A DNA stretch of 64,000 bases from a virus, in the UHGV virus genome UHGV-0076293. One strand, written 5' to 3'. The position numbers were made by a program, and so were the translations under genes. The notes under the pieces were generated by a model. That model saw nothing but the letters and a program-made list of their open reading frames with translations. It made no database searches and had not been told where the DNA came from. Positions 8,011 to 59,170 of the stretch are shown piece after piece. Positions within the stretch are counted from its first letter, which is position 1. The number at the start of each line of letters is the position of its first letter.

Positions 8011-8065
8011 TATTTTCAGATATATATTACTTAGGTGAGAGAATTACGTAATACTCATTTATCGA
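8011..8065 (+). promoter_or_regulatory. phage promoter-like element with downstream 5'-UTR hairpin (copy 1)
   Basis: TTTTCAGATATATATTACTTAGGTGAGAG followed by an imperfect palindrome; about 25 nt upstream of an AGGAG RBS; one of five near-identical copies. Confidence 0.6.
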
Positions 8066-34848: not shown

Positions 34849-34890
34849 TCAGATATATATTACCTTAGTGAGATTACACAGTAATCACTT
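34843..34890 (+). promoter_or_regulatory. phage promoter-like element with downstream 5'-UTR hairpin (copy 2)
   Basis: TTTTTTCTCAGATATATATTACCTTAGTGAGA followed by an inverted repeat (TTAC...GTAATCAC). Confidence 0.6.
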
Positions 34891-35997: not shown

Positions 35998-36028
35998 AAC
36001 AGGGAGCTTCGGCTCCCTTTTTCTTTTT
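35998..36028 (+). terminator. intrinsic terminator
   Basis: AGGGAGC-TTCG-GCTCCCT followed by a T-rich stretch. Confidence 0.8.
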
Positions 36029-38651: not shown

Positions 38652-38879
38652 ATGGAAATCAAACGTATTGTAACCAAAAACAAACAGATTGTTTACGTCG
38701 CAGGTGATAACGAATTCTCGGCGGTAATTAACAGCGAAAATGCGCTCATTATCGGTTATCCGGGTAAAGTTATTACGCGCAGTCACCAACGTGCGATTGA
38801 CAAACTTATCGCGAAAGCGAAAGCGCGCGACGGTGTTGGTTCAGTACAAACCCACACAGGGTTAACGCTGACCCTCTAG
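38652..38879 (+). CDS. hypothetical small protein (75 aa)
   Basis: AGGATGATGAATGG RBS region. Confidence 0.6.
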   Translation: MEIKRIVTKNKQIVYVAGDNEFSAVINSENALIIGYPGKVITRSHQRAIDKLIAKAKARDGVGSVQTHTGLTLTL

Positions 38880-38918
38880 TCAGCAGGTAATATGACCTCT
38901 TAACTGGAGACTTTAATA

Positions 38919-39425
38919 ATGAGTGAGACTCTGGATTTTAATCAGCTCGAACAACACGATTTCGATCTCGGTGTTCGTGATATCGATGCTGATCATGAAA
39001 CACGTTGTAAAGAGCTGTTTAACCGTTACGGTCAGCTCATCACCGGTGCCTCTGATGACACCGAATTCAGTTTAGATGAGTTTGAAAAAGTTTTGTCGTG
39101 TTTTATCACCGATTGCCTGGCGAAGAAAGCGTTACTGGTAGAACTGAACTTAGACTCCGTCGAACCTACCGATGCCCACGCGGTGTTGAAAGAATCCATT
39201 ATCCCAACTGATGAGATTATGGACACGGTAGCAGGTATTCGTGGTACGTTTGAAACCGCTGTAGATGAATACACGGAACAGCTTCGTGAGTCAGGACTGA
39301 CGTTGTGTGCGCCAGCAGGCGAGCAATTACCGTCCGACGCAGAAACTGAAGAAGCGCGTAGCCGCTTAGCACGTTATGTTATCACGTCTATCTTGGTAGA
39401 TGATCGCGAAGAGAATCTGCTGTAA
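38919..39425 (+). CDS. strongly acidic small protein
   Basis: 168 aa with very high Asp/Glu content and few basic residues. Confidence 0.65.
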   Translation: MSETLDFNQLEQHDFDLGVRDIDADHETRCKELFNRYGQLITGASDDTEFSLDEFEKVLSCFITDCLAKKALLVELNLDSVEPTDAHAVLKESIIPTDEIMDTVAGIRGTFETAVDEYTEQLRESGLTLCAPAGEQLPSDAETEEARSRLARYVITSILVDDREENLL

Positions 39426-39428
39426 GCT

Positions 39429-39466
39429 GCCCCCTCTCTCCAGACGGAGAGAGGGTGTATTTTTTA
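39429..39466 (+). terminator. intrinsic terminator (repeat-family hairpin)
   Basis: CCCCCTCTCTCC-AGAC-GGAGAGAGGG followed by a T-rich stretch; near-identical hairpin at 40214. Confidence 0.8.
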
Positions 39467-39520
39467 CGCGTATAGCCGTAGTTATGCACAAGTAAACAAA
39501 ATTAATTGAGGAACAATCTG

Positions 39521-39838
39521 ATGTGGTTAAGTGCTATTCATCGCGATTTACCGAAAACGGCAGTGAGTTTTGCTAAGAAAACTCCTGTTCCTAACGTTGG
39601 TGTTGCTAAATTTGAACGAGTGGAAGAGGGGCAATTCGTTGTAACGGATCATAAAGAAAACGAATTTATGTTGTATCATCCAGAAGTGGATACCTCTGAA
39701 ATTTGTGAGGGTGTTTTTTTATTGTCCTGGCAAGACCCTGAAACTAAAGAGTGGAAGTGGTGCACCGCTAAACCATTAAAAGAAATCGAAAACGGTTATG
39801 GGATTGGAGAGATTTATGTCGAACCAGAACCACACTAA
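39521..39838 (+). CDS. hypothetical protein (105 aa)
   Basis: first ATG with GAGGA RBS (track starts at a TTG at 39506). Confidence 0.6.
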   Translation: MWLSAIHRDLPKTAVSFAKKTPVPNVGVAKFERVEEGQFVVTDHKENEFMLYHPEVDTSEICEGVFLLSWQDPETKEWKWCTAKPLKEIENGYGIGEIYVEPEPH

Positions 39839-39879
39839 TTTCGATATAACTTCAGCATTGTGTTGTTAACGGTCTAAAA

Positions 39880-39920
39880 AATTTAAGATATATTTCATCT
39901 ATGTGAGAATTCTCACTTAA
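39880..39920 (+). promoter_or_regulatory. phage promoter-like element with downstream 5'-UTR hairpin (copy 3, variant)
   Basis: AAGATATATTTCATCTATGTGAGAATTCTCAC; perfect GTGAGAA/TTCTCAC palindrome. Confidence 0.5.
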
Positions 39921-39939
39921 CTAAATGGAGTAATCTAAA

Positions 39940-40209
39940 ATGGCTAAGATTTACATTGTTGAAAAACGTTCAGGTAATGTTCTTTCTTATCACGAAGAAG
40001 GCAAACCCGAAAGAGTTAAAACGCTCAAGCTTGAAGGTTTTGATGTGAAAAGCCTGCGTAAAGGCGTGAAGATTACTTTCAAAGGTTTGATTCGTGCAAG
40101 TAACTTACACATCATTAAAACGGACGGAACGATGGTTGCATTAGCACCGGCTACCGCTGCGAAAACGACAGCCGGTCGGGGTTGCTACGGCAGCAGTCGT
40201 AAGATTTAA
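39940..40209 (+). CDS. hypothetical small protein (89 aa)
   Basis: GGAG RBS, downstream of promoter motif copy 3. Confidence 0.6.
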   Translation: MAKIYIVEKRSGNVLSYHEEGKPERVKTLKLEGFDVKSLRKGVKITFKGLIRASNLHIIKTDGTMVALAPATAAKTTAGRGCYGSSRKI

Positions 40210-40213
40210 GCAG

Positions 40214-40254
40214 TGCCCCTCTCTCCTAGCGGAGAGAGGGTACTTTTATTTTTC
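40214..40254 (+). terminator. intrinsic terminator (repeat-family hairpin)
   Basis: CCCCTCTCTCC-TAGC-GGAGAGAGGG followed by a T-rich stretch. Confidence 0.8.
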
Positions 40255-40264
40255 TTCGAGGTGT

Positions 40265-40756
40265 GTGATGACAACGGTATTAGTAACAAAGGATTACATT
40301 TTAGCTGATCGTTTAGTGGAATATAGTGGAACAGTTAAAGAATTGCCCAAACTACACAAACACAAAAACAAGTTTGTTTTCTACACGGGGGAACGTGTAC
40401 TGGACACCGAGTTTTGGAAAATGTCGATGACCGTTACTATAGAAAAATATTTAGACGAGGATAAACGCAAGAAAGTTGAGCCGTTGCTTGTGGAACTTTT
40501 CGAAAAAGAGCAATTGTTTGATCAAATCGTCATTTTTACGGTCAGAGAAACCTATTGGCTAGGATTAGTATCAGATAAGTTTAAAACGTTTGTAATAAAT
40601 AAAAATGCGGTCTGGACGACGGGATCTGGTGGCGGCTTTGCGCGGGCAGCTTGGGCAACAGGAATATCAGAAAAGAAAATTATGCCATTGGTAGGATCAA
40701 TTGATACAGCATCATCACAAACGTACGACTTGTTTTACAGGAAGCATTTACGATGA
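40265..40756 (+). CDS. hypothetical protein (163 aa)
   Basis: GAGGTG RBS. Confidence 0.65.
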   Translation: MMTTVLVTKDYILADRLVEYSGTVKELPKLHKHKNKFVFYTGERVLDTEFWKMSMTVTIEKYLDEDKRKKVEPLLVELFEKEQLFDQIVIFTVRETYWLGLVSDKFKTFVINKNAVWTTGSGGGFARAAWATGISEKKIMPLVGSIDTASSQTYDLFYRKHLR

Positions 40757-41274
40757 AAATAAATGCGGTTTTAATTGGCGATGAAATATTCGTTAATACA
40801 AAAACACAATATATGTGTTACGAAGGTATTACTGTAATAGACGATTATTACGGTAAATACGGTTGGTGGGTTCCGTCTCCTAATTCTTTACGATTAGAAG
40901 AGGCATTAACTGCCGAAGAGAACAAACTGGATGACGAATGGACTTATATCAGCTCCGTAATTGACGTCAGTGGACGAATTAAAGACGTCTTCTGGGCTAA
41001 AGATATAGGGTGGCGTGTTACACTACACCAACCAACCCCGGTAAGATTGCTCTACGACCACGCCGATACTTCAGAGTTAGCGTTTACCATTGAGACGCTC
41101 TCGGTACGTAAAGATTTAGATAACGTAGGTAAAGGGAAGTGGTCTATTGAACGCGTAGAGGAAATTCTTAGTCACTTTAAAGCCAACAACAAATTTAAAC
41201 GTTGGTGCACGTTACCTGAATTAGTAGAGGAGTTGAAAAAGCGGGATTGCAAGCCGCTACCTTTTAATCCGTAA
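40753..41274 (+). CDS. hypothetical protein (173 aa)
   Basis: ATGA overlap with upstream gene. Confidence 0.65.
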   Translation: MKINAVLIGDEIFVNTKTQYMCYEGITVIDDYYGKYGWWVPSPNSLRLEEALTAEENKLDDEWTYISSVIDVSGRIKDVFWAKDIGWRVTLHQPTPVRLLYDHADTSELAFTIETLSVRKDLDNVGKGKWSIERVEEILSHFKANNKFKRWCTLPELVEELKKRDCKPLPFNP

Positions 41275-41318
41275 CTTTTTACGAATGTAGCTATTTTAAT
41301 GATTAGGAGAATATAGAG

Positions 41319-41714
41319 ATGACAGCAATACTAGGTGTAATGACAAGAAAAGCCGATGCCATTGAAACGTTTATTGAACAATACAACAACTCACCGTATA
41401 CGCGTTTTAGATTGCATAAACCGAAGAATAGTACAGAATGGGTTCGTTGGTTTAGGATTTGGGATAAAACAATAAGTAAAATTGATCCGTTATTTAGAAT
41501 AACGGTTGAACCTGCTTATTGGATAGTAATGGAAATTTCGCTATTGCGTATTATCGAAAAACGTCCTATTGACACAAAGACGATGTTTGGGAATGATACG
41601 TATAAAATGTTGACTAACGGTTTTGTAGGTAATGGAGAACACACTTTGTATCAGGCGATGCTGGAAATGTGTTTGTTCGATTTAGTTACATACGAATTGG
41701 AGATTTCAAAATGA
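41319..41714 (+). CDS. hypothetical protein (131 aa)
   Basis: AGGAGA RBS. Confidence 0.65.
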   Translation: MTAILGVMTRKADAIETFIEQYNNSPYTRFRLHKPKNSTEWVRWFRIWDKTISKIDPLFRITVEPAYWIVMEISLLRIIEKRPIDTKTMFGNDTYKMLTNGFVGNGEHTLYQAMLEMCLFDLVTYELEISK

Positions 41715-42175
41715 ATTGCTTCGAATCTAAAGAAATTGTTGAGTTGTTTAAACAGCGTGAGAAAACCTCTTTCCGTGACTTGTACGATTCTGATTATCGT
41801 CCACTATTTGCGGTATTGTTGAAACTGGATAAAGAACCCGAAATCGCGTTAGCAGAAGTCCAGCATCATCACGTGAGTTTCGTGTTAACTGAAAACAAGG
41901 AACGTTGGGTAGATGACATACTGAACCGTATCGCGCTTTTGGAAACGCCGCATCGCTGGGAAGTGGTTATTCAGAAATCGTTGTTCCCGCGTGAAGACAT
42001 TTTCAACAACTATCGTCCGAAACAGTATTACAACCACGACGGGTCGCCAAAACGTGCTTTCCTGGCACCCCAGCATTTCGTAACCTACGTAACGTTGCGT
42101 TACAAAGACACCGTGGTGCCGTTTGACACCTACCTGGAAATGCGCGAGATAATTTTAGGGAAGAATCCGTCATGA
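41711..42175 (+). CDS. hypothetical protein (154 aa)
   Basis: ATGA overlap with upstream stop; track lists a longer ORF from 41669. Confidence 0.6.
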   Translation: MNCFESKEIVELFKQREKTSFRDLYDSDYRPLFAVLLKLDKEPEIALAEVQHHHVSFVLTENKERWVDDILNRIALLETPHRWEVVIQKSLFPREDIFNNYRPKQYYNHDGSPKRAFLAPQHFVTYVTLRYKDTVVPFDTYLEMREIILGKNPS

Positions 42176-42654
42176 TTCAATTTTCTGTTGACGCAGAAAG
42201 ACTGGCGTCATTTAAAGAGCGTGCTCAGTCTGCAATCAAAAACGGTTACATTGAGAAAGGTGTTCGTGATACTTGTAAACTAATCAACGACCATCCGCAT
42301 GTTGTTTCGATCTGGTCTTGTGAAGGACATGGTACTTATTCAAAGTCTCCAGGGCATCTCCGTATTATCTTTGCAACGCACGCTGTTGGAAACCAGATAC
42401 CGATGCGGCTAATGAACGAACTTGCAAAAAGCGACTTAGCCAACTTTTGGAATCTTAGTTTGTGTCGTCTTCATTTACCAGAAGTGGATTCAGAATTATT
42501 ATATCCTGAACCTGACTACGGGTTGAACACAGACGACACGTCTTACTGGGCATGGCAAATCGGGTACATGTGCTTGATTAATCGCCCTGCGTTAATTGAG
42601 ACACGTCAAGCTCTTTATAAAGCATTTCACACAGTATTAGTTGAGAATAAATAA
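42172..42654 (+). CDS. hypothetical protein (160 aa)
   Basis: ATGA overlap. Confidence 0.65.
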   Translation: MIQFSVDAERLASFKERAQSAIKNGYIEKGVRDTCKLINDHPHVVSIWSCEGHGTYSKSPGHLRIIFATHAVGNQIPMRLMNELAKSDLANFWNLSLCRLHLPEVDSELLYPEPDYGLNTDDTSYWAWQIGYMCLINRPALIETRQALYKAFHTVLVENK

Positions 42655-43346
42655 TGGCTACCAAACAAAAGAAACCTCGTAACAAAAAGTATAACCCGAA
42701 AGCGGCTGCTAACCGTACTGCACACACCATTGCTGAAAATGCGCTAAACCGCATTACTTTCGTCGGTAGCTCTATTCGTCCCATCGGTCCGTACGCGGGC
42801 CGTGGTTTCCAGTTTACAACGTCGCCGCGTATGCGCATGGCAGCCACCGACATGTTAATCGGTGGTTTGTTTGACGAACCGCGTAACTGGAAACTTTGGG
42901 TTGCGCATCTGTACGAAACAGATGACGGTGTACAAGCAGAAACCATCGTTGCAACGCTTGACGACTACACGTTAAGTGACTTCTGTCAGCATGGTGATAA
43001 AATCATCAAGTCGCTACGTGAGACGGAAGAAAACTATTTCGGTTACGCTTTCGTTGCTGCACCTAACGAACGTTATGATTTCGACCAGGGAGAAGAACGC
43101 TTACTGGAAAACTTCATGCATTCGGGTCTGTTAGACAAATCCTTACACTTACCTGAAGAAGAACTGATGGTTACGCGTAAGGATATGGTAACGTTGCTAC
43201 TAGCCGATCGTGGTCGTTTTGATATTACTGAACCCCATGTACGTAAAGTACAGAAACTCGTGGATAAAGTAGACGAAACTGACCTGGACACTAACGAAGT
43301 CGCAACACGACTTCAGTCTGTGGTAAACCAGATTGAGGATTACTAA
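42654..43346 (+). CDS. hypothetical protein (230 aa)
   Basis: TAATG overlap; basic N-terminus. Confidence 0.65.
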   Translation: MATKQKKPRNKKYNPKAAANRTAHTIAENALNRITFVGSSIRPIGPYAGRGFQFTTSPRMRMAATDMLIGGLFDEPRNWKLWVAHLYETDDGVQAETIVATLDDYTLSDFCQHGDKIIKSLRETEENYFGYAFVAAPNERYDFDQGEERLLENFMHSGLLDKSLHLPEEELMVTRKDMVTLLLADRGRFDITEPHVRKVQKLVDKVDETDLDTNEVATRLQSVVNQIEDY

Positions 43347-43348
43347 AC

Positions 43349-43879
43349 GTGATAGCGAGACTTATGAGTTGGTTTAAGCAATGTCGGGCAAAGGCGGTCG
43401 AATGGCCGCCTATTACGCACGATGAAAAGGTGGTTGCTTTTCTGAATTATAACAAAGACTTGAAGAGATTAGGCGAGTTAATGCGCTTAACGGAATGTCA
43501 GGTTTTTGCTAAGATTTCAAGTAGTGCTTTACGTAAACAGGTAATTCCCTACCTATCCTTTTCAGGGCAGGTTTATGCAATAACAGCAGAAGAATTTTTA
43601 TCGATGGTGGGCAATGAAACCCCACGTATACGGTACTCGGTTGCGGGTTCATCTGATGCGGTCGGTACAGTTGATTTCGGACGGTTGTATCAGAGCATTA
43701 AAAGTGTGGGGCATATACATGTTAAGCGATTATCAGAAACTTCTGTAGTGATTTATCATCGCACTGAGCACGATTTGTTAGGGTGTGTTATAAGGCTAAC
43801 AAATTTACATAGTTTTTACGTTGATTTACTTACAGAGTTTTATCCAGAATCATGGTGCTATATAGATGAAAATAAATGA
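43349..43879 (+). CDS. hypothetical protein (176 aa)
   Basis: GTG start after GAGGA. Confidence 0.6.
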   Translation: MIARLMSWFKQCRAKAVEWPPITHDEKVVAFLNYNKDLKRLGELMRLTECQVFAKISSSALRKQVIPYLSFSGQVYAITAEEFLSMVGNETPRIRYSVAGSSDAVGTVDFGRLYQSIKSVGHIHVKRLSETSVVIYHRTEHDLLGCVIRLTNLHSFYVDLLTEFYPESWCYIDENK

Positions 43880-44078
43880 CGGATATATCATCTCAGCAAT
43901 TGTTTCAACTGCGTTGATTGTAGCGATGTTGATGTTCTACGTTAAGACGTCCGACGAATCACGTAGAGAGTCCCTTTATCGTGAATGTATGTCAGGTACT
44001 ACTGTAGATAACCCACGTTACGCTGAATTAGTAATGGCGTGTACGGAATACGCTAAACGAATGGGAGGCGGACGATGA
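43866..44078 (+). CDS. small single-pass membrane protein (70 aa)
   Basis: N-terminal TM helix YIISAIVSTALIVAMLMFYV, two Cys in the soluble part; architecture matches the next gene. Confidence 0.55.
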   Translation: MKINDGYIISAIVSTALIVAMLMFYVKTSDESRRESLYRECMSGTTVDNPRYAELVMACTEYAKRMGGGR

Positions 44079-44272
44079 AAATTTGGTTGCCGATTGTAGT
44101 TTTTATCCTTATCGCAGGGGCACTAGCGAACGCCGAGTACGAGAGTCGTGTTTTAGAAACGAAACGCATGTTGTATCTGAATTGTATAAAGGATTATACA
44201 CCAGGCACAGAGCTTCATGCACAGGCTGTAAAAAGCTGTGCATTGATGGCTGAATCACAGACTCGCTCCTAA
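44075..44272 (+). CDS. small single-pass membrane protein (65 aa)
   Basis: N-terminal TM helix IWLPIVVFILIAGALA, ESR motif and two Cys; ATGA overlap. Confidence 0.55.
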   Translation: MKIWLPIVVFILIAGALANAEYESRVLETKRMLYLNCIKDYTPGTELHAQAVKSCALMAESQTRS

Positions 44273-44646
44273 TGCGTATCTGGACGCTACAACTTGCTAA
44301 GTGGCGGTTAGCTAAGCAGAAAGGATTTCACGCAGTGGATATTACTGTGAAGTCAGGGCGAAAGGAACTCGCCCCCGACTGGGATTTCCTAATGGCGTAT
44401 AAAGTTTCTGCCCAGGACGCTACCGCTGAACGTGAGTACACGATAAAGTATTTGTACAAACTCGAACAACTGTTAGATACTGATGCCGAAGTTTTAGTGT
44501 CGTTACTCAGGCACGATGACTTGGTTTTGATGTGTTATTGTCCCGCAGGTAAGTTTTGTCATCGTTACTTACTGGCGAACAAACTTCAAGAAGTAGGAAT
44601 GATATTCGGTATCGACGTTGAGTTATGTGGAGAATTAACCGAATGA
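44272..44646 (+). CDS. hypothetical protein with Cys-x-Cys...CHR motif (DUF488-like)
   Basis: C-terminal LMCYCPAGKFCHRYLLA resembles the conserved CHR signature of the DUF488 family; assignment from memory of the family signature. Confidence 0.35.
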   Translation: MRIWTLQLAKWRLAKQKGFHAVDITVKSGRKELAPDWDFLMAYKVSAQDATAEREYTIKYLYKLEQLLDTDAEVLVSLLRHDDLVLMCYCPAGKFCHRYLLANKLQEVGMIFGIDVELCGELTE

Positions 44647-45080
44647 AAGTAAAAGCAGCAGTAGAAGTTATTCCCAAAAAAGAAATCGTAGTGTGTTCCG
44701 GTTTAGTATTCGAGCTGCCGCGCACTGAATGTTATAATAGCACCAATCCTGAAACGATAATTAGACGCCTTTCAAGACATTGCCTAAACTACTGTCAAGT
44801 TGTTACACCGACAAAGGATGGCGATATAGTCCAAGAACATTTGATTATTAATGAACTCGTGGGCGGTGTCCTTAACGGAATGGAGCTTGAAGAAGTGAAT
44901 GGTTCGTTAAAGCTTTATGCCAACTTTCGTCCATGTGGACCACTGGGCAATAAAGTAAATGAATTTATTCAGTCACACGGGTATGTAAAGCTTAAACCAC
45001 GTTTACACTATATCGATTCTAAAGTAGCTATGATTTCAGCTATCGATATTGACCTATCAAAACCTTCTGAAAATCACTAA
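44643..45080 (+). CDS. hypothetical protein (145 aa)
   Basis: ATGA overlap with upstream stop. Confidence 0.6.
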   Translation: MKVKAAVEVIPKKEIVVCSGLVFELPRTECYNSTNPETIIRRLSRHCLNYCQVVTPTKDGDIVQEHLIINELVGGVLNGMELEEVNGSLKLYANFRPCGPLGNKVNEFIQSHGYVKLKPRLHYIDSKVAMISAIDIDLSKPSENH

Positions 45081-45111: not shown

Positions 45112-45156
45112 CCTACCGCCCGATTCTATGGGCGGTAGGTGTTTTATTTTTTTTTG
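45112..45156 (+). terminator. intrinsic terminator
   Basis: CCTACCGCCC-GATTCTAT-GGGCGGTAGG followed by T9. Confidence 0.8.
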
Positions 45157-45171: not shown

Positions 45172-45735
45172 GTGGCCACATCTTACGTACCTGATTTGAG
45201 TCTGACCTCAGCAGAGCTAGTGGTCGCTTTAATCAATCATGATAACGGGTTACAGCTTACGCTAAACGAAATCCGTATTAGCGGAACCGTAACAAACCCA
45301 TCACCAACAACTTCGCGTCGTAACACCATCACCGAAATCAGTAAAATCAGAAAACCGGATGGTGCGTCTGTTGTGGTCTACTACGACAGACTTGACGCCG
45401 ATGAGGTATTAACGTCTGAACCTATTTTGATTTCGTTAGACGGTACCGAAGCGATTATCCGTGACGTTCTGAGTGTTGTAAATGAACACTGCGGTACGAA
45501 CTTACAGCCTGAAGACTTACGCGTTTCTGATATTACTTCAGGTAACGATCCTATTGCCGTTAACGTTGCCGACGATTCACCTGCGTGGATGAATGCGTTT
45601 ATGGTGACGTTATTTGATAAAACTGAGCGTGCGTTAGCGAACGAAGAAGATGAAATCTTCTGCATCGGTGACGATAGCGTTCTTACCTTTGAGGTTCCAG
45701 ATGACGACTCAGCTGAAGAAAACCCGACTACATGA
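45172..45735 (+). CDS. fibre-associated protein, paralog A1 of a four-member family
   Basis: GTG start after GGAGGG; shares PDLSLTS...NHD...YYDRLDA...CGTNLQ...CIGDDSVLTF with the gene at 51471; sits directly upstream of a tail fibre gene. Confidence 0.6.
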   Translation: MATSYVPDLSLTSAELVVALINHDNGLQLTLNEIRISGTVTNPSPTTSRRNTITEISKIRKPDGASVVVYYDRLDADEVLTSEPILISLDGTEAIIRDVLSVVNEHCGTNLQPEDLRVSDITSGNDPIAVNVADDSPAWMNAFMVTLFDKTERALANEEDEIFCIGDDSVLTFEVPDDDSAEENPTT

Positions 45736-45940
45736 ACTTGATGATTTTTACCGGTAATGGAGGACAAAGCAAACTTTTATCAAGACTTAGCAAACCAAAA
45801 TCATGAAAACGCGAAATTGAACATCGCTTTCACGTTAGAAGATGATGTATTAAAACCAGGGCAATAGTAACCCGCTTATAAAAAATTGGGGGGTAAACTA
45901 CTCTCCTGATCTTTTAGCTCCCGATAGAGAATTAAATATC

Positions 45941-48900
45941 ATGGCTAAAGCGGTAAAGAAAATTCGTTTACACGATTTACGTCCATACACCGGTGATATC
46001 GGTGAAGGCGTTTTACTTTTCTCCAAGGATGAGAAAGATTATAAGTTACCAGTCCGTGAGGTTATTGCAGATATTGACACCGTACGTAATGCGGTGGCTG
46101 ATGCACAAACAGCAGCAGCACAATCACAAGAAGCTGCAACTCAGGCTACGCAAGCAAAAGTTTTAGCAGAAGCAGCAAAACAACAAACTGACACAGTTGC
46201 GGCAACGGTTGCACAACAAGCGCAAACCGTAACCGAAAAAGCAACAGAAGTCAGTACAAAACACACCGAAGTGTTAGCCGCGAAAACGGCGGTAGACGCT
46301 CAGGCTGTGTCCATTAATGAGAAAGCACAAGCGGTAGCGACAAGTGAGGCAAACGTCACACAAGCAGAAACTACCGTTACGAAGAAAGCAGAAACTGTTG
46401 CCACACAAGCCGGGCGGGTCGAACAGTCACTTACGGCAGTTAACGAAGCTGTTGCGTCGGTAGAGTCGTCGAAAGCTGCCGTAGAAGCTAAAGCAACACA
46501 AGTTACTTCAGACAAAGAAACCGCAGAGAATGCGGCAACTCGTTCTGAGGCAGCCGCTAAGCGTGCGGAAGAAATCGTTGCTCAAGGTACTGTTGATGCA
46601 ACAACGACCAGTAAAGGTGTCGTTAAACTTAATAATACCTTAACCAGTGACTCTGTTACTGAAGCGGCTACACCGTCAACGGTTAAGCAGTTAAATGATG
46701 AATTGCAGTTAAAAGCAAACCGTCACAACCCAACTTTTACCGGTGTGGTAAAAGCACCGACTCCTGCTTCGGATTCTAACGACACGAGCGTCTCAACGAC
46801 TGCATGGGTACGGCAAGCGATTGCTGAATTAGTGGACTCTTCACCCGAGACGTTAGATACGTTATCAGAAATTGCAGCCGCGTTAGGAAACGATCCTAAC
46901 TTTGCGACAACGATAACGAACCAACTAGCGGGTAAACAGCCGTTAAGTCCGTTACTGACAGCGATTGCCGCAGTCACCACCGCTGCAAACAAACTCCCTT
47001 ACTTTACCGGTAGTAATCAGGTAGGGTTAGCGGATTTCACCTCGACTGCTCGCGAATTATTAGCGAAAGGGTCGACGGCCGATATCATCAGCTTCCTGGG
47101 GTTGAAAACCACCGTTGATAAAGCTGCGGGCGCTATGCAACGTAGTTCTAACGGTGCCGATATTCCCGATAAAGCCACCTTCGCGAAGAACATCGGGTTG
47201 TCAGCAGAGACGTACCTGAAGTTTAATGGGGAGATGCCAGTAGATGCAGACATCAACACCTTCGGCCCGGTTGAAGCGTTTATGGGCGTTTGGTCTAAAG
47301 CCACGTCTACGAACGCAACAGTTGCAAAGAATTTTCCAGAAGAAAACGCAGTTGGTTGTTTAGAAGTTTTCAAAGCGGGTAACTACAGCGGAAGTCAACG
47401 TTTTACTGTACGTAACGGTAACATCTATACACGTCATCTTACTGCTGCATGGAATGGGACAAACGGTCCTTGGTCAGAATGGCGTAATGTTGCTGGTTCC
47501 GCCAGAACGTTGAACGAACAAAATAATCTGAATGACTTGGGTGGTGAGGCCGCACTAGGTGTTTGGAGAAACAGTTCGAGTACATTAGCAACAACCGCGC
47601 TGAATTATCCTGAAGAAGGCTCTTTTGCCCAGGGCGTATTAGAAGTTCTCAAAGGTGGCAACTATAGTTACACACAACGCTACACTACCCGCAGAGGCAA
47701 TGTATACGTTCGTTGTCTACAAGCCACGTGGGACGCTTCAAACCCGCAATGGGAAGAATGGCGCTGTGTTGGTCATCAATCTGTCAGCACATATTTCGAA
47801 GGCGATCTCGACACGTTAACTTCGCCTAACCGTTATAGCATTACTGATAAAGCGACAAACGTTCCTTTAATCGACGGTACTAAAATTATCGGTATCTTGG
47901 ACGTCAGTCGTCGTTTTGATAACATTAGTGTCGAACAAAAATTCACCTCGTTTGGTTCTGGGAGCAAAACTACAGGGCGTATTTTCACACGTGTATTCTC
48001 CGGTCAATCAAACGGTAAATGGAGTGAGTGGCGAGAGGTTTTCACCTCGTATTCACTTCCGTTAGTTTTAGGTATCGGTGGGGTTGCAGCTAAGGTTGAC
48101 CCGTTAGACTGGCAAACCTACGACTTCGTTCCTGGACAGATGTTAACGACGCCGTTGAACACCATGAAAAACATTCCTGCAGGAATGGATTGGGGTACTA
48201 TTGACGGTAACTTAGTTAACATCCTTGTAGGGCCGTCTGACGACACCGGTACTGGTCGGAGTATGCTGGTTTGGCGTAGCACAGTGTCTGTTGCTAACTA
48301 TCGCTTCTTTGCGGTACGTATCGCTGGTGAGAAGGGTAGTCGTACGATTACGCCGCGTCAGATGCCTGTGTTGAACGCAGCGCACACCTGGGCAGAGAAA
48401 CAAACGTTCTCTAAAGGTTTAGCGGGTGAATTAACCGGTAATGCTTCTTCAGCAACGAAACTTCAAACAGCCCGTTTAATCGGCGGCGTAAGTTTCGACG
48501 GCACCAAGGACATTGCACTCCCTGGCGTTAACGCACAAGGTACGCAGAACACCACTGGGAATGCGGCTACCGCAACCAAATTACAAACGGCTAGAAATAT
48601 CAACGGTGTGAAATTCGATGGCTCTGGAGACATCAATATCAACACCTTAGTAGGTCGTGGACGTGTCACTGCTCTGGCTGGATCAAACAAAGGTACACCT
48701 GGTATCCAGATGTACGAGGTTTACAATAACGGTTATCCGACCGCGTATGGTAATTTACTGCATTTAGGTGGTGCTACTGCCGTAGGTGAAGGTGAACTAC
48801 TGATCGGTTGGTCTGGTACCAGTGGCGCACACGCACCTGTTTATATCCGTAGTCGTCGAGACACTACAGATGCGCCGTGGTCAGAATGGGCGCAAGTTTA

Positions 48901-50257
48901 TACTGCACGAGACAGCATTCCGGGTGTCAACACCACAGGTAATCAGGATACGACCGGAAACGCAGCTACCGCTACAAAACTTAAAACCACACGTAAAATA
49001 GGCGGGGTTAATTTTGACGGAACGGGTGATATTAACCTACCAGGTGTAAACCAGCAGGGCAACCAGAACACAACAGGTAACGCTGCGACAGCGACTAAAC
49101 TCCAGACTGCCCGAAATATTGGTGGTGTGGCTTTCGATGGTACTAAAGACATCAGTTTACCTGGGGTAAACCAAACAGGGAATCAGTCAACTACGGGGAA
49201 CGCTGCTACTGCAACGAAGTTGCAGACAGCAAGAAGTATCAACAACGTACCATTCGATGGTTCGAAAGATATTACTCTAACGCCAAGTAATATCGGTGCG
49301 GCTGCCTCCTCAATGACTTGGTTAAATACCGGGGATAATGGTGCAGCGCTTAGTACAGATTCTTTTATTACTTTGTTGCAAAATAACGGGGCTTTTAATT
49401 CCAGAACTTGGATAGCCCGATGCTCTTGGGCGTATGCTCAAAATGGCGTGATTCCAGATAGTGAAACAAAGTGCGGTACTATTCCACTTGCAGGCTCAGT
49501 TATTGAAGTTGTAAGTTTTGGGATGACCAACTACACCATTCGTATCACAACCCCTACGACGACATCGGTTAGCGGAGCAAAAACCAACTCTGAGTTTATT
49601 TATTGCTATAATGGTAAAGATTATTCTCCAGGTTGGCGACGGCAGTATAACACTGTTAATAAACCGTCTGCTAGTGACGTTGGCGCTCTACCAACTGGTG
49701 GCGGTACTGTCAGTGGCGATTTGACGGTTAATGGTAAACTGGTTACGAAAAATGCCGATTTTCGAATTGCTTACGGTAGTTACGGTTTCATTTTACGTAA
49801 CGATGGCAATAGCACCTATTTCTTAGTAACAGCATCTGGTCAAGCTGCAACGGGTTCCTGGAACAACTTACGACCGATGTACTTTAGCAATTCTACCGGT
49901 CAAGTAACCTTCGGACACAACATTACCGGTAACGGCAACGGTTCGTTTAACGACGTACAGATTCGTTCTGACCGTCGTAACAAACGTAATCTGGTGAAAC
50001 TGGATAATGCATTAGACCGTTTAGAACTCCTTACCGGGTATCTGTACGAAGTTCAACATCCTGACGATGGATGGAATACTTCGGTAGGCTTAATTGCCCA
50101 GGATGCATTAGTTGCGTTACCTGAATTGGTTACTGAAGACGATGACGCTATTTCTGGTGAAAAACGTTTACGTTTGAACTATAATGGTGTTATTGCGTTG
50201 TTGGTAGAGGGTATTAAAGACCTTCGTCGTGAGCTTAAGGAACTCAAGGGGAAATAA
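45941..50257 (+). CDS. long tail fibre, T5 pb1-like (1438 aa)
   Basis: Ala/Gln/Thr-rich coiled-coil N-terminal region; five tandem GNAATATKLQTARNIGGVxFDGTKDI repeats (phage tail-fibre repeat class); C-terminal peptidase S74-type intramolecular chaperone with SDRRNK Ser-Lys motif. Confidence 0.85.
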   Translation: MAKAVKKIRLHDLRPYTGDIGEGVLLFSKDEKDYKLPVREVIADIDTVRNAVADAQTAAAQSQEAATQATQAKVLAEAAKQQTDTVAATVAQQAQTVTEKATEVSTKHTEVLAAKTAVDAQAVSINEKAQAVATSEANVTQAETTVTKKAETVATQAGRVEQSLTAVNEAVASVESSKAAVEAKATQVTSDKETAENAATRSEAAAKRAEEIVAQGTVDATTTSKGVVKLNNTLTSDSVTEAATPSTVKQLNDELQLKANRHNPTFTGVVKAPTPASDSNDTSVSTTAWVRQAIAELVDSSPETLDTLSEIAAALGNDPNFATTITNQLAGKQPLSPLLTAIAAVTTAANKLPYFTGSNQVGLADFTSTARELLAKGSTADIISFLGLKTTVDKAAGAMQRSSNGADIPDKATFAKNIGLSAETYLKFNGEMPVDADINTFGPVEAFMGVWSKATSTNATVAKNFPEENAVGCLEVFKAGNYSGSQRFTVRNGNIYTRHLTAAWNGTNGPWSEWRNVAGSARTLNEQNNLNDLGGEAALGVWRNSSSTLATTALNYPEEGSFAQGVLEVLKGGNYSYTQRYTTRRGNVYVRCLQATWDASNPQWEEWRCVGHQSVSTYFEGDLDTLTSPNRYSITDKATNVPLIDGTKIIGILDVSRRFDNISVEQKFTSFGSGSKTTGRIFTRVFSGQSNGKWSEWREVFTSYSLPLVLGIGGVAAKVDPLDWQTYDFVPGQMLTTPLNTMKNIPAGMDWGTIDGNLVNILVGPSDDTGTGRSMLVWRSTVSVANYRFFAVRIAGEKGSRTITPRQMPVLNAAHTWAEKQTFSKGLAGELTGNASSATKLQTARLIGGVSFDGTKDIALPGVNAQGTQNTTGNAATATKLQTARNINGVKFDGSGDININTLVGRGRVTALAGSNKGTPGIQMYEVYNNGYPTAYGNLLHLGGATAVGEGELLIGWSGTSGAHAPVYIRSRRDTTDAPWSEWAQVYTARDSIPGVNTTGNQDTTGNAATATKLKTTRKIGGVNFDGTGDINLPGVNQQGNQNTTGNAATATKLQTARNIGGVAFDGTKDISLPGVNQTGNQSTTGNAATATKLQTARSINNVPFDGSKDITLTPSNIGAAASSMTWLNTGDNGAALSTDSFITLLQNNGAFNSRTWIARCSWAYAQNGVIPDSETKCGTIPLAGSVIEVVSFGMTNYTIRITTPTTTSVSGAKTNSEFIYCYNGKDYSPGWRRQYNTVNKPSASDVGALPTGGGTVSGDLTVNGKLVTKNADFRIAYGSYGFILRNDGNSTYFLVTASGQAATGSWNNLRPMYFSNSTGQVTFGHNITGNGNGSFNDVQIRSDRRNKRNLVKLDNALDRLELLTGYLYEVQHPDDGWNTSVGLIAQDALVALPELVTEDDDAISGEKRLRLNYNGVIALLVEGIKDLRRELKELKGK
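48425..49295 (+). repeat. five tandem ~37-aa tail-fibre repeats inside the fibre gene
   Basis: repeated TGNAATATKLQTAR-x-IGGV-x-FDG-x-DI-x-LPGVNQ-x-GNQ units, recoded with synonymous codons between copies. Confidence 0.8.
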
Positions 50258-50803: not shown

Positions 50804-50815
50804 AAGAGTAGCGTA

Positions 50816-50825
50816 GGGGGGGGGG
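50816..50825. repeat. poly-G tract (G10) inside a GC hairpin
   Basis: homopolymer GGGGGGGGGG pairing with a downstream C6 run. Confidence 0.9.
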
Positions 50826-50853
50826 AGGTCACCCCCCTACGCGAATCTTAACA

Positions 50854-50862
50854 GGGGGGGGG
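50854..50862. repeat. poly-G tract (G9) forming the ribosome-binding region of the gene at 50865
   Basis: GGGGGGGGG ends 2 nt before the ATG. Confidence 0.9.
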
Positions 50863-50864
50863 TA

Positions 50865-51368: not shown

Positions 51369-51405
51369 TTATTTTTCAAACGAATGTGTTTGAAAACGTA
51401 ATCGA

Positions 51406-51415
51406 GGGGGGGGGG
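51406..51415. repeat. poly-G tract (G10)
   Basis: homopolymer about 55 nt upstream of the gene at 51471. Confidence 0.9.
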
Positions 51416-51470
51416 TGAAGTGTTTTTAGCCAACATTTTATGTCTCCCCAACCGTAGGAGGTAAATATAC

Positions 51471-51983
51471 GTGGAACAATTCACGCCAGATTTGTCGTTA
51501 ACTTCACTTAACATGGTTATTTCACTGGTTAACCATGACCTCCAACTTGACTTGCAAGAGAATGAGGTCGAAGTCAGTGACGTAAAGACCAGTGACGAAA
51601 TGGAACGTGACACCACTGCTGTTGTAAAGATAAAACGTTCTGGTAACAGAACGTTACAAATCTACTACAACCGTTTAACTGCAGAGCGGTGGTTAAACCG
51701 ACAACCTGTACTTGTAAAAGTAACAGGCGAAGGGTTTAATGCGCACGATCTAATCGAATCCATCAACACCGTTTGTGGTGCTAACTTACAAACCGACGAT
51801 TTAACCGACCAGTCGTTCACGGTGGGTAAAGACGCGGTAATATTTAGCATCGCTCCGAGTTCCCTCGGCTACAAAGGTCAGTTCTCCGTGGTGGTTTTCG
51901 GTCCAGATGAAACACCGTGTGGTATCGGTGACGATTCTGTCGTGCTAACGTTTGACAATAAAATCTTAACCTTTGGAGAGTAA
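51471..51983 (+). CDS. fibre-associated protein, paralog A2
   Basis: GTG start after AGGAGG; paralog of the gene at 45172; directly upstream of the second fibre gene. Confidence 0.6.
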   Translation: MEQFTPDLSLTSLNMVISLVNHDLQLDLQENEVEVSDVKTSDEMERDTTAVVKIKRSGNRTLQIYYNRLTAERWLNRQPVLVKVTGEGFNAHDLIESINTVCGANLQTDDLTDQSFTVGKDAVIFSIAPSSLGYKGQFSVVVFGPDETPCGIGDDSVVLTFDNKILTFGE

Positions 51984-51986
51984 TAG

Positions 51987-54119
51987 ATGAGTCAGCCAAT
52001 TGGAAAGAAGCGTATTCATGAGCTGGAAACATTTGAAGGTGAATTAGCAGGAGTCGTTCTGCTGATGTCCAAAGACGACAAAGAATATAAACTTGACGCA
52101 TCTCGTTTACAAAACGATAAGCTGTATCTAGCTTGCGGTACACCTTTTCCTAAACTAGTATTCCAAAACGATAAAACACATTACAATATTAATCCGTACA
52201 GTGACTACGACACTTATGAAGTTTCTGCAAATAAAGGTCGGGTATCTAAAGTTACTCGTGCCACATTTAGCGTGATGGCTGGGTCTTTATCGGTTGGCGA
52301 GAAAATACAACTTACAGTTACGCGCAATGGCGTACCATTTCAATTTGAAGTTACCGTATCGGGACCGCGTATCACTACTCCCACTTGGACACTTCCAGTT
52401 AATGGCGGTAAATTGAGCGTAACGCCAACCTTTGAAGTAACTGACTATCAAGCCTATCCATATACCAACACCGGTAATCAACAGACCGCTGCCAGTTGGG
52501 AAATTTCCACTAGTGAAGATTTCTCAACTACAGTTTTCCAATCACTGAACGACACCGTCAACAAAACAACCATCAGTATCCCAGAAGGTAAGTTAGAACC
52601 AGGTCAAACTTACTACGCACGTGTTCGCTTCCATAACGCAGTAACCGAAAGTGATTGGTCCGTTGTTCAATTCTCAGTCGGCGAAGCATTTATTCAGCGT
52701 CCTGCACTGATCGAACCCACCGTAGACATGGTGTTAAGCGCATCGAATATTACACTTAAAACTGATGTTTTTAAATGGGTCGGTGACGAACCTGCGGAGA
52801 CCCACGTATCGACTGACTGGCAGGTTACTTACGGTAGCAACGATTTTGACGAAATGAATAATCTCGTTAACCAATTAGAAGATGCGATTAACCTGACGTC
52901 GCTTAAATTACCGTCTGATCGGGTTTACGTTAATAACAGTTATCGTGCACGCGTGCGTTTTCGTGGTGAGAGAAGCGTCAGTGATTGGTCTGAACCTTTA
53001 ACGTTCCGTGTAAGTCGCGGGAACGTACCAACAAGTGAATTCCAGTCAATTTCTGCTTCTGGATTTACAGGTAATTCAATCGGTGCTGAGTTGGCATGTA
53101 CTGACGACGGTTTGCTGTTTGCTGCTACTGGCGTTGCACAGAAAGCGAAATTCTTACATATCTTTAAGAAAGACTTCCCGTCTTACAACAAAGTTGCCTC
53201 TTTAACAGCTGCTACTGAGGTTGACGCAGACAGAGATGGTCGCTGTCCGGTCAGTATGTCAGCCGACGGTAAGATTATTGTTGTCGGTGTTAGCGCATCT
53301 AAAGCTAACGAAGACCACGGCGAAGTTATCGTTTACCGTAACCCAGATAACGCTGAGTGGAGTACAATCAACGGAATAACTTTAGCGGGATTACCCACAG
53401 AAGGGTTCCATGGCCTTGCAGTAAAACTGTCAAAAGACGGCAATCGTTTGATTGTGGGTAACGGTACGAAAGTGCTGTCTATGTATTCCAATACCGATCA
53501 ATTTGCTACACGTACGGCTGTGTCGCCGACACTAAGTGCCGAAGACGCCACTTGTGGTGGTATTGGTAGCATTGCAATGTCTGAAGACGGTAACGGTTTA
53601 GTGCTTGGCGAAACTAACGGAACGAAATTCCACGTACTGGCTTGGGAATCGGATAGTTGGGTGTCTAAGGCATCTATTACACCAAAAGACTTGACTGAGA
53701 AAGCAACGATTAAAGTCGCTGCTTCTTCTGACTTGTCTACGATTCTTGTTTCTGTAGTTGAGACACACAAATACTACGTTTACAAGAAAACCGGTGATAG
53801 TTGGTCTCTGTTCCAAACCTTGGATTATACCGAACTGGATTACTCCATTACTTCTACCCGTTACCCGACGGGAGACATTAATGTTGCGCCTTCCGGAAGC
53901 TGGTTAATTTTCGGTATGGTGGGTTCGTTGGGTTCTATTTTCGAATTTCGTAATAGTACCTACCAACGACAAAATAGCATTTACGGCAGTAGTCTTAGCG
54001 ATCCTGAGAATTACCACTTCTATACGTCACAAGCCATCAGTGCACAAAACGATTTGTTCGTCGGTGCTGATGTTAAAGAAAGTGCTTCGTACTTCCCACA
54101 AATCAAAGTTTACATGTAA
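51987..54119 (+). CDS. second tail fibre / receptor-binding protein (710 aa)
   Basis: N-terminus KKRIHELETFEGELAGVVLLMSKDDKEYKL is homologous to the N-terminus of the 1438-aa fibre; two FN3-like units (YYARVRF...SDWS, YRARVRF...SDWS); C-terminal repeated S-x-DG-x-x-(I/L)-(V/I)-x-G beta-propeller-like blades. Confidence 0.7.
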   Translation: MSQPIGKKRIHELETFEGELAGVVLLMSKDDKEYKLDASRLQNDKLYLACGTPFPKLVFQNDKTHYNINPYSDYDTYEVSANKGRVSKVTRATFSVMAGSLSVGEKIQLTVTRNGVPFQFEVTVSGPRITTPTWTLPVNGGKLSVTPTFEVTDYQAYPYTNTGNQQTAASWEISTSEDFSTTVFQSLNDTVNKTTISIPEGKLEPGQTYYARVRFHNAVTESDWSVVQFSVGEAFIQRPALIEPTVDMVLSASNITLKTDVFKWVGDEPAETHVSTDWQVTYGSNDFDEMNNLVNQLEDAINLTSLKLPSDRVYVNNSYRARVRFRGERSVSDWSEPLTFRVSRGNVPTSEFQSISASGFTGNSIGAELACTDDGLLFAATGVAQKAKFLHIFKKDFPSYNKVASLTAATEVDADRDGRCPVSMSADGKIIVVGVSASKANEDHGEVIVYRNPDNAEWSTINGITLAGLPTEGFHGLAVKLSKDGNRLIVGNGTKVLSMYSNTDQFATRTAVSPTLSAEDATCGGIGSIAMSEDGNGLVLGETNGTKFHVLAWESDSWVSKASITPKDLTEKATIKVAASSDLSTILVSVVETHKYYVYKKTGDSWSLFQTLDYTELDYSITSTRYPTGDINVAPSGSWLIFGMVGSLGSIFEFRNSTYQRQNSIYGSSLSDPENYHFYTSQAISAQNDLFVGADVKESASYFPQIKVYM

Positions 54120-54736: not shown

Positions 54737-54782
54737 TCAGATATATATTACCTAGAGGAGAGTGAAATTTACATTCACTCCA
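54731..54782 (+). promoter_or_regulatory. phage promoter-like element with downstream 5'-UTR hairpin (copy 4)
   Basis: TTTTTTCTCAGATATATATTACCTAGAGGAGAGTGAA followed by an inverted repeat ending TTCACTCC. Confidence 0.6.
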
Positions 54783-59118: not shown

Positions 59119-59170
59119 TAATTTCAGATATATATTACCTAGGTGAGAGTTCAGTTACTCTCACTTAACC
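59119..59170 (+). promoter_or_regulatory. phage promoter-like element with downstream 5'-UTR hairpin (copy 5)
   Basis: ATTTCAGATATATATTACCTAGGTGAGAGT-TCAGT-TACTCTCAC; clean 8-bp stem. Confidence 0.65.

Follow-up and report, generated by a model that had tools for sequence, protein, structure and literature searches.

A run of 15 small genes in an SPN3US-related jumbo phage is likely a three-unit accessory region rather than a single early operon

Does the run of small genes at positions 38652-45080 of UHGV virus genome UHGV-0076293 form one early host-takeover or anti-defence unit, as an earlier note on this DNA had proposed? The analyzed stretch of 64,000 nucleotides (nt), called the window here, is by its sequence a 64-kb part of the ~224-kb genome of an undescribed Salmonella jumbo phage, which is related to SPN3US and of the phiKZ-like type with two RNA polymerases. 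Seven related contigs served as the comparison set for gene calls, ratios of nonsynonymous to synonymous substitution rates (dN/dS), and gene content. Our results favor another organization: the block is likely a three-unit accessory region that comprises one head-protein gene, a small early-type unit (gp112h, the homologue of SPN3US gp112), and an 11-gene coupled operon of non-virion, partly dispensable proteins. The letter h marks homologues of SPN3US gene products, and all features given below are on the + strand unless stated otherwise.

A terminator scan revealed three strong sites with a hairpin and a T-run in the block or at its edge, and these were three of the four strongest sites between 34 and 52 kb. 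The first intrinsic terminator (39432-39455) has a 10-bp stem (CCCTCTCTCC/GGAGAGAGGG), a 4-nt loop, and a T-run. The second (40217-40240) lies 785 nt away, has the identical 10-bp stem, and follows the stop codon of gp112h by 8 nt. The third (45112-45139) has an 11-bp stem with 8 G-C pairs and precedes a DUF7941 gene and tail-fibre genes. All three sites show the G+C-rich hairpin and T-run of rho-independent terminators, and the structure is kept in each case. In the relatives the stems were invariant and the 4-nt loops variable, and the terminator at 45112 was invariant in all seven. In SPN3US, hairpins with different stem sequences occupy the corresponding positions behind gp109, gp112, and gp121. 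Because the stems are invariant, the loops are free to change, and SPN3US has differing stems at the same sites, we consider the terminators to be conserved structures. Among the relatives, one of the loops at the 39432/40217 pair is the reverse complement.

Since these three conserved terminators divide it, the block is predicted to consist of three terminator-bounded transcription units and not of one operon. Unit A extends from a terminator at 36001 through the genes for GNAT (36075), Dam, gp106h, gp108h, and gp109h, of which the last two lie inside the block, and it ends at the terminator at 39432. Unit B comprises gp110h and gp112h between the terminators at 39432 and 40217. Unit C (40268-45080) starts 27 nt past the 40217-40240 hairpin, and its 11 genes are chained by ATGA and TAATG overlaps, which indicates that they are translationally coupled. 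The terminator at 45112 ends this unit. The corrected operon map, with its terminators and one early-type promoter, shows experimenters which genes are likely co-expressed.

The limits of the block in the earlier note were exact borders of open reading frames (ORFs): 38652 starts a gene for a protein of 75 amino acids (aa), and 45080 is the stop of a gene for a 151-aa protein. The note had counted about 17 small genes of 65-230 codons. The run of small genes was borne out and the size range was correct for all genes, but their number is 15, all on the + strand. Independent gene calls on related contigs gave the same 15 (75, 168, 105, 89, 162, 173, 131, 154, 160, 230, 176, 70, 65, 124, and 145/151 aa) and backed the ATG starts at 39521, 40268, and 41711 over upstream TTG/GTG codons. 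Together with the next gene, the block counts 16 consecutive genes of ≤230 aa, more than any other such run in the window (7-8 genes). ATGA (-4 nt) overlaps, said to join many of the genes, were indeed enriched: they make up 4 of the 14 junctions in the block and 2 of 62 in the rest of the window (Fisher p = 0.009). Those of the block are at 40753, 41711, 42172, and 44075, and all of its overlaps fall within 40268-45080, the second part of the block. Of the remaining junctions, two are 1-nt TAATG overlaps (42654 and 44272) and two are longer overlaps (-14 and -22 nt); one pair of genes is 2 nt apart, and the last five junctions are true intergenic gaps of 39-101 nt. PHROG families were matched by 11 of the 15 genes.

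The promoter motif that had been listed as copy 3 is real. The degenerate pattern AGATANATNTNAYNT has five copies, all of them intergenic and on the + strand, while 0.05 copies were expected by chance, and the sequence AGATATATTTCATCT at 39886-39900 is the third of these. Four near-identical copies of CAGATATATATTACCT are present at 8017-8032, 34850-34865, 54738-54753, and 59125-59140, each just past a terminator. The copy at 39886 is the most diverged of the five and shows three differences from the canonical 10-nt core TATATATTAC. An A/T-rich stretch is found before each copy, and an inverted repeat of variable stability follows 2-7 nt after it. In the block this repeat is the hairpin GTGAGAATTCTCAC at 39903-39916, and motif and hairpin together cover 39886-39916. 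The 70 nt from the A-run to the start codon of gp112h are invariant in six relatives, apart from one loop substitution, and the sequence just upstream of this footprint is diverged or rearranged in the relatives. SPN3US carries the canonical motif before gp101 and the related sequence CAGATAGATGTTATTT before gp112 (promoter-like AGATA..AT).

Early promoters of virion polymerases are characterized by a conserved AT-rich element of ~10 nt centered near -10, which was found bioinformatically upstream of early operons (PMC7598289). The motif copies of the window resemble phiKZ-type early promoters in being AT-rich repeated motifs of ~10 nt that lie upstream of operons of small non-virion genes and are all oriented with the genes (PMC7598289). 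The genes behind the canonical copies are non-virion and mostly lineage-specific, which fits the early class. Unlike these promoters, the block copy deviates from TATATATTAC at three positions and contains TATG, the core of the phiKZ late promoters (PMC7598289). The best explanation of this pattern is that gp112h has its own predicted, diverged promoter of the virion-RNA-polymerase (early) type with a 5' hairpin. A scan for sigma-70-type promoters resulted in 29 sites versus 29.1 expected; such a lack of enrichment is no surprise in a phage that has polymerases of its own. A literature search on TATATTAC yielded nothing informative, and neither an SPN3US transcriptome nor transcript data for the phage of the window were found in the accessible literature. 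The sequence TTATG is also present at 39482-39486, ~37 nt upstream of the gp110h start, and it is kept in SPN3US despite a diverged spacer. Its likeness to the phiKZ late-promoter core is taken as a lead only.

The view that a single early operon for host takeover or anti-defence spans the whole block and is transcribed from the internal motif by the injected virion RNA polymerase appears unlikely from these data. It agrees with the early-type motif and its conserved 70-nt footprint, with small, overlapping, and mostly orphan genes, and with orthologues that are mostly non-virion and variable in alleles and gene content (see below). The DUF488 protein showed weak PADLOC matches to candidate defence-system components, and a possible role of phage HslU-family proteins against host defences was suggested by the authors of the study on Erwinia phage RAY. 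However, the motif is situated in the middle of the block and cannot serve the three genes upstream of it. The only gene that it serves directly is the 89-aa gp112 homologue, and behind this gene the 10-bp G+C-rich terminator at 40217 closes the unit, is kept in the relatives, and has a counterpart in position in SPN3US. The copy is also the one with three changes in the 10-nt core, and the orthologue of gp109 is a head protein. The motif stands as a promoter candidate, but it heads only gp112h, and the proposal of a single early unit is not supported for a block that three conserved terminators divide. Better candidates for an early region are the small-gene runs at 54.8-57 kb and 59.2-62.5 kb, which are headed by the canonical copies at 54738 and 59125. 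Since unit C abuts a terminator and has no early-type motif at its start, it would not be primarily early.

The block is syntenic with SPN3US gp107-gp121 (98.5-105.7 kb). In both phages it lies between the genes for thymidylate kinase, a helix-turn-helix protein, GNAT, and Dam on one side and the DUF7941 and tail-fibre genes on the other. The window has orthologues of gp108, gp109, gp110, gp112, gp114, gp115, gp120, and gp117 (26%-63% aa identity), and both phages have terminators behind gp109, gp112, and the final gene of the block as well as a promoter-like motif before gp112. In contrast, 5 of the 15 window genes have no counterpart in SPN3US (the HslV-like gene, its partner, and the genes at 41319, 41711, and 43349), and SPN3US gp107, gp111, gp113, gp118, gp119, and gp121 are missing from the block of the window. 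The membrane proteins of the window resemble gp116 weakly, the gp117-like gene follows the DUF488 gene and does not precede it, and there is no DNA similarity at the megablast level.

In the virion proteome of SPN3US, gp109 is the sole virion protein of gp107-gp121 and was found in whole and in tailless particles (Table S4, PMC5105663). Since it is retained in tailless particles, gp109 is considered a head protein. The seven other orthologues (gp108, gp110, gp112, gp114, gp115, gp117, and gp120) are absent from this proteome (Table S4, PMC5105663), and gp112 was stated to be non-virion. Virion incorporation, which the earlier note had taken as the mark of structural rather than accessory genes, therefore applies by orthology to the gene at 38919 (gp109), while seven of eight orthologues are non-virion. 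By analogy to SPN3US, the block would be mostly non-structural, in agreement with the note.

Comparison to the seven relatives revealed strong variation within the block. The flanking genes of these relatives are 95%-100% identical to the window. Four of the seven relatives lack the gp117-like gene and two have a 32% allele in its place, the gene at 41319 is absent in two of the seven, and a gp111-like gene that the window lacks is present in two (L006 and L010). The alleles of gp110h show 68%-76% aa identity versus 97%-98% in the flanks, with a synonymous divergence (dS) of ~1.0 compared to 0.1-0.3 in the flanks. The HslV-like gene is 67%-88% identical in the relatives and the gene at 43349 shows 44%-78% aa identity; at these two genes and gp110h, dS reaches values of up to 1-2. 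The genes for gp109h and gp115h are 97%-99% identical, and gp115h is the most conserved gene of the block. Variable content and alleles, a feature of host-takeover or anti-defence regions, are seen in indels of three genes and alleles of 32%-78% aa identity. Such a mosaic of gene content and alleles is typical of recombining accessory genes. The turnover of genes and alleles between phages with nearly identical flanks is what accessory or arms-race genes would be expected to show, which supports this part of the earlier interpretation. The natural variation points to the HslV-like gene, 43349, gp110h, and the gp117-like gene as candidates for host interaction.

Is the block a late morphogenesis module, with gp109h as a head component and with roles of the HslV-like, gp117-like, and small membrane proteins in the assembly of heads or tail fibres? 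The gp109 protein is present in SPN3US heads, and SPN3US gp117 is a diverged paralogue of the prohead protease gp245 (PMC5694885). The block abuts the genes for the DUF7941 virion protein and the tail fibres, the phiKZ late-promoter core TTATG upstream of gp110h is kept in the lineage and in SPN3US, and unit C starts right after a terminator, a layout that it has in common with the virion-gene operons at 2298 and 45172. SPN3US gp123 and gp124 are tail proteins (Table S4, PMC5105663). The gp117-like protein itself (44625-45080, 151 aa) is a homologue of SPN3US gp117 with 26% identity; the similarity to this MEROPS S80-like protein is weak but reciprocal (1e-7), and phrog_7478 ("head maturation protease") was matched at 4e-6. 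Opposite Ser126, the proposed catalytic residue of gp117, the window protein has Lys, and the position is K, T, S, V, or G across the family, with the reservation that this is a low-identity alignment. The position of Asp144 is occupied by Asp, but the His-Ser-Asp triad of prohead serine proteases is not complete, and the gp117-like product is probably not an active serine protease. In addition to this unconserved Ser position, seven of eight SPN3US orthologues went undetected in virions, close relatives can do without the gp117-like gene and 41319, SPN3US itself has no member of the HslV-like family, and allele replacement at such a rate is not expected of essential assembly factors. We consider a module of this type quite unlikely. 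Because unit C adjoins virion genes and holds a paralogue of a prohead protease, we nevertheless leave a small probability to a role in morphogenesis.

The first gene of unit C (40268-40756) encodes a protein of 162 aa that matched PHROG 1040 ("peptidase HslV family", 3e-6). In an alignment of 21 family members with 24%-97% identity to this protein, the residues M-T-T (Thr2/Thr3), D14, K28, G119-S/T-G121, and D146 are invariant, and all relatives start the gene at the same ATG (162 aa). The protein thus has the N-terminal Thr nucleophile of MEROPS family T1, and D14, K28, GSG, and D146 correspond to the supporting catalytic residues Asp17, Lys33, Gly-Ser-Gly, and Asp166. A profile of the family had HslV (4hnz, E = 4.8e-5) as its sole match in the PDB, with the GSG aligned to the GSGG of 4hnz. 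The top 20 PDB matches of the AlphaFold2 model, built with a broader family alignment, were all HslV or proteasome proteins in a Foldseek search (best E = 2.9e-5), and a search of the BFVD matched phage proteins annotated as "ATP-dependent protease subunit / proteasome beta". NCBIfam gave no relevant match for this protein, which is thus outside the curated Pfam and NCBIfam families, and a single-sequence phmmer search of the PDB with the HslV-like, gp117-like, and DUF488 proteins revealed nothing significant. By sequence and model, the protein is an HslV-type (proteasome beta-like) N-terminal nucleophile peptidase with an intact predicted catalytic set. It resembles bacterial HslV (ClpQ; MEROPS T1B; PDB 4hnz, 1m4y, 1ned) in the N-terminal Thr, the Asp, Lys, and G-S-G positions, and the predicted alpha-beta-beta-alpha fold. 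It differs from bacterial HslV by an identity of 14%-19%, a shorter middle region, a similarity below Pfam detection, and the lack of an adjoining cognate HslU.

The HslV-like gene overlaps by ATGA with the gene for a 173-aa partner protein (40753-41274; phrog_25529), which shows 32% identity to pEa_SNUABM_43 gp126. HslV-like genes are present at the equivalent position of the block in Cronobacter phage CR5 and the Erwinia Machinaviruses (24%-28% identity over the full length), and in Machinavirus the same pair occurs with the same overlap, the HslV-like gene being ATGA-coupled to the conserved downstream partner. Unlike the window, CR5 and pEa_SNUABM_43 have an HslU-like ATPase of their own (578-687 aa) a few genes downstream in the block. 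A tblastn search with the HslU-like proteins of CR5 and Machinavirus did not find a cognate HslU in the 64-kb window. The same situation, an HslV-like gene for which no HslU was detected, was described for Salmonella phage pSal-SNUABM-04 (PMC7823757). The HslU-family protein of phage RAY localizes to the phage nucleus (RAY study). The peptidase would work with the HslU of the host or with an ATPase encoded outside the window. A phage HslV that has no HslU in the window is a cheap biochemical test case for the use of proteasome-like proteases by nucleus-forming phages.

Taken as a three-unit accessory region, the block would be the plastic, SPN3US-group-specific equivalent of SPN3US gp107-gp121. 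Unit A would be the tail of the GNAT/Dam operon and end in a head protein (the gp109 orthologue), and in unit B, gp112h would be expressed from its own early-type promoter. Transcription of unit C may be due to the non-virion polymerase (middle class), to transcripts that run on from the gp112h promoter, or to both. We infer that it could function as a dispensable host-interaction module that remodels host or phage proteostasis and envelope functions. Its putative products are the HslV-type peptidase and its coupled partner, two paralogues of the gp114 family, the gp115 homologue, the hypervariable 176-aa protein, two membrane proteins, the DUF488 protein, and the probably inactive paralogue of a prohead protease. 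Several observations weigh against this model. Read-through from the sole early-type promoter would have to pass a strong terminator before unit C, which may speak against early expression by this route. Genes for virion proteins (DUF7941, tail fibres) lie next to unit C, which itself holds the prohead-protease paralogue. The HslV model is of moderate quality (predicted local distance difference test score, pLDDT, 74.7; template modelling score, TM, ~0.46), the Pfam Proteasome family did not match the protein at E ≤ 0.1, and the part of the ~224-kb genome outside the 64-kb window may contain a gene for an HslU-like ATPase. Finally, no gene of the block matched a characterized anti-defence or host-shutoff protein in Pfam, PHROGs, NCBIfam, or PADLOC, none of which is a dedicated anti-defence library, and the PADLOC matches were weak, concerned the DUF488 protein, and referred to candidate systems.

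A more far-reaching and rather improbable version of the accessory region is that unit C acts as an island for anti-defence and host proteostasis. The orphan HslV and its partner would dock on the host HslU ATPase and either redirect proteolysis to host defence or stress proteins or titrate HslU from phage proteins, and the alleles of 43349 and of the gp117-like gene would be effectors in an arms race.

That some of the block is a spacer between functional modules, filled with mis-called ORFs or decaying pseudogenes, is hardly credible: four genes have neither a PHROG nor a Pfam match, two have GTG/TTG as the first possible start, and antisense ORFs reach 122 aa, but purifying selection acts on all 15 genes (dN/dS 0.02-0.34 versus the seven related contigs), their frames are intact, the independent gene calls agree, and Shine-Dalgarno-like sequences or coupling overlaps are present at the gene starts. 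The antisense ORFs (e.g., 42578-42946, 122 aa) were rejected as genes since they overlap + strand genes with a dN/dS of 0.03-0.2.

The assignment to a phage lineage was based on the following data. The window is colinear with SPN3US gp56-gp141 in a gene-by-gene BLASTP comparison. By PHROG matches, the flanking genes encode a DnaB-like helicase, the major head protein, a portal-size virion protein, internal head proteins, thymidylate kinase, Dam methylase, and T4-like long tail fibres. SPN3US (Seoulvirus) belongs to the giant phages related to phiKZ and has multisubunit RNA polymerases of both the virion and the non-virion kind (PMC5105663, PMC7598289). In a tblastn search, the best-conserved gene of the block matched only jumbo phages of the SPN3US/Erwinia/CR5 group, with ≤64% identity. 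A megablast search of 38-46 kb against 50,697 GenBank phage records found no DNA match, and relatives were therefore sought by protein searches. These recovered the same lineage as single contigs of 222-226 kb in metagenomes and in assemblies of Salmonella enterica isolates of serovars Javiana, Dublin, and Enteritidis (e.g., GCA_007161585.1, GCA_009563675.1); the isolates themselves possibly carry the phage lineage. Because the lineage is present on contigs of Salmonella enterica isolates and has no DNA match among GenBank phages, we assigned the window to an undescribed SPN3US-like Salmonella jumbo phage. Neither a tRNA scan nor Rfam at gathering thresholds found anything in the window. The region type, HslV-like genes, the gp117 paralogue, and the class of early promoters are already described for relatives, and the results overturn no current views. 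The block is an ordinary, poorly understood accessory region that is carried at this position by every SPN3US-like jumbo phage; new are the lineage, recovered on single contigs of Salmonella isolates, and the operon map.

The earlier note had found no assignable function for any of the genes. This was wrong for four or five of them: the HslV-like gene, the DUF488 gene, the prohead-protease paralogue, the gp109 orthologue, and the two genes for small membrane proteins. In unit A, the gene at 38652-38879 is the penultimate gene of the operon that begins with the GNAT gene (36075) and encodes a basic protein of 75 aa, the gp108 orthologue (41% identity; phrog_7896, 3e-21; dN/dS 0.08-0.30). It is followed by the gp109 orthologue (38919-39425), an acidic protein of 168 aa with an isoelectric point (pI) of 4.2, 40% identity to gp109, 55% identity to a Machinavirus homologue, and a dN/dS of 0.03-0.06. 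Unit B encodes gp110h (39521-39838, 105 aa, 59% identity to gp110), for which the ATG at 39521 is used in the relatives, and the basic gp112h (39940-40209, 89 aa, pI 10.2, 44% identity to gp112).

In unit C, the HslV-like gene and its partner are followed by a gene for a 131-aa protein with no family match (41319-41714), which is present in five of the seven relatives and has a dN/dS of 0.09-0.26. The next gene (41711-42175; phrog_7413), whose ATG at 41711 produces an ATGA overlap, encodes a 154-aa protein that is considered a distant paralogue of gp114h on the basis of the common PHROG. For gp114h itself (42172-42654, 160 aa), the identity to SPN3US gp114 is 39%. Its SCEGHG motif belongs to the S-C-x-G-H-G motif conserved in the family, and both gp114h and the 41711 product matched Pfam TYW3 below threshold (E ~1e-3 in four of eight family members). 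A profile of the gp114 family found nothing in the PDB, and we keep the relation to TYW3 as a lead only. The gp115 orthologue (42654-43346, 230 aa) has a basic N-terminus, 63% identity to gp115, a match to phrog_6965 (2e-80), and a dN/dS of 0.02-0.04. An exhaustive profile search for the gp115 family resulted in 17 clusters in 1.84 billion proteins, none of which has a Pfam domain, while a word-index search found SPN3US-like phages only. The following gene (43349-43879) encodes the 176-aa protein, which has no family match and is the most variable of the block (dN/dS ~0.3).

Two small genes follow. The product of 43866-44078 is a membrane protein of 70 aa with an N-terminal membrane helix, two Cys, and a hydropathy of 2.45, and it is a probable member of the SPN3US gp116 family. 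The 65-aa product of the gene at 44075-44272 has two Cys as well and starts with a membrane or signal helix; a weak alignment suggests that this gene is a tandem paralogue of the 43866 gene. Both products have a C-x17-C pattern that is also present in SPN3US gp116. BLASTP among the proteins of the block found no significant paralogues, and an NCBIfam scan of these proteins gave no meaningful matches. The protein encoded at 44272-44646 (124 aa) belongs to the DUF488 family (DUF488-N3a), as its score for PF22751 (45.4 bits, E = 1.2e-11) is above the gathering cut-off of 27; the same family is annotated on relatives, and the identity to the SPN3US gp120 orthologue is 55%. A literature search on DUF488 was uninformative.

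Some further features were observed outside the block. A duplicated cassette (45172-50257 and 51471-54119) consists of a DUF7941 gene and a fibre gene with a gp123-like N-terminus, and the fibre arrangements of the relatives differ from that of the window, e.g., by an extra gene of 1001 aa. G runs of 9-11 nt and one C6 run are present in intergenic sequence at 50804-50864 and 51369-51470, beside genes for a Gp38-like adhesin and tail fibres; these tracts are slippage-prone and adjoin host-range genes. An antisense ORF of 685 aa on the - strand (12334-14391) lies within the gene for the major capsid protein and is probably a compositional artefact.

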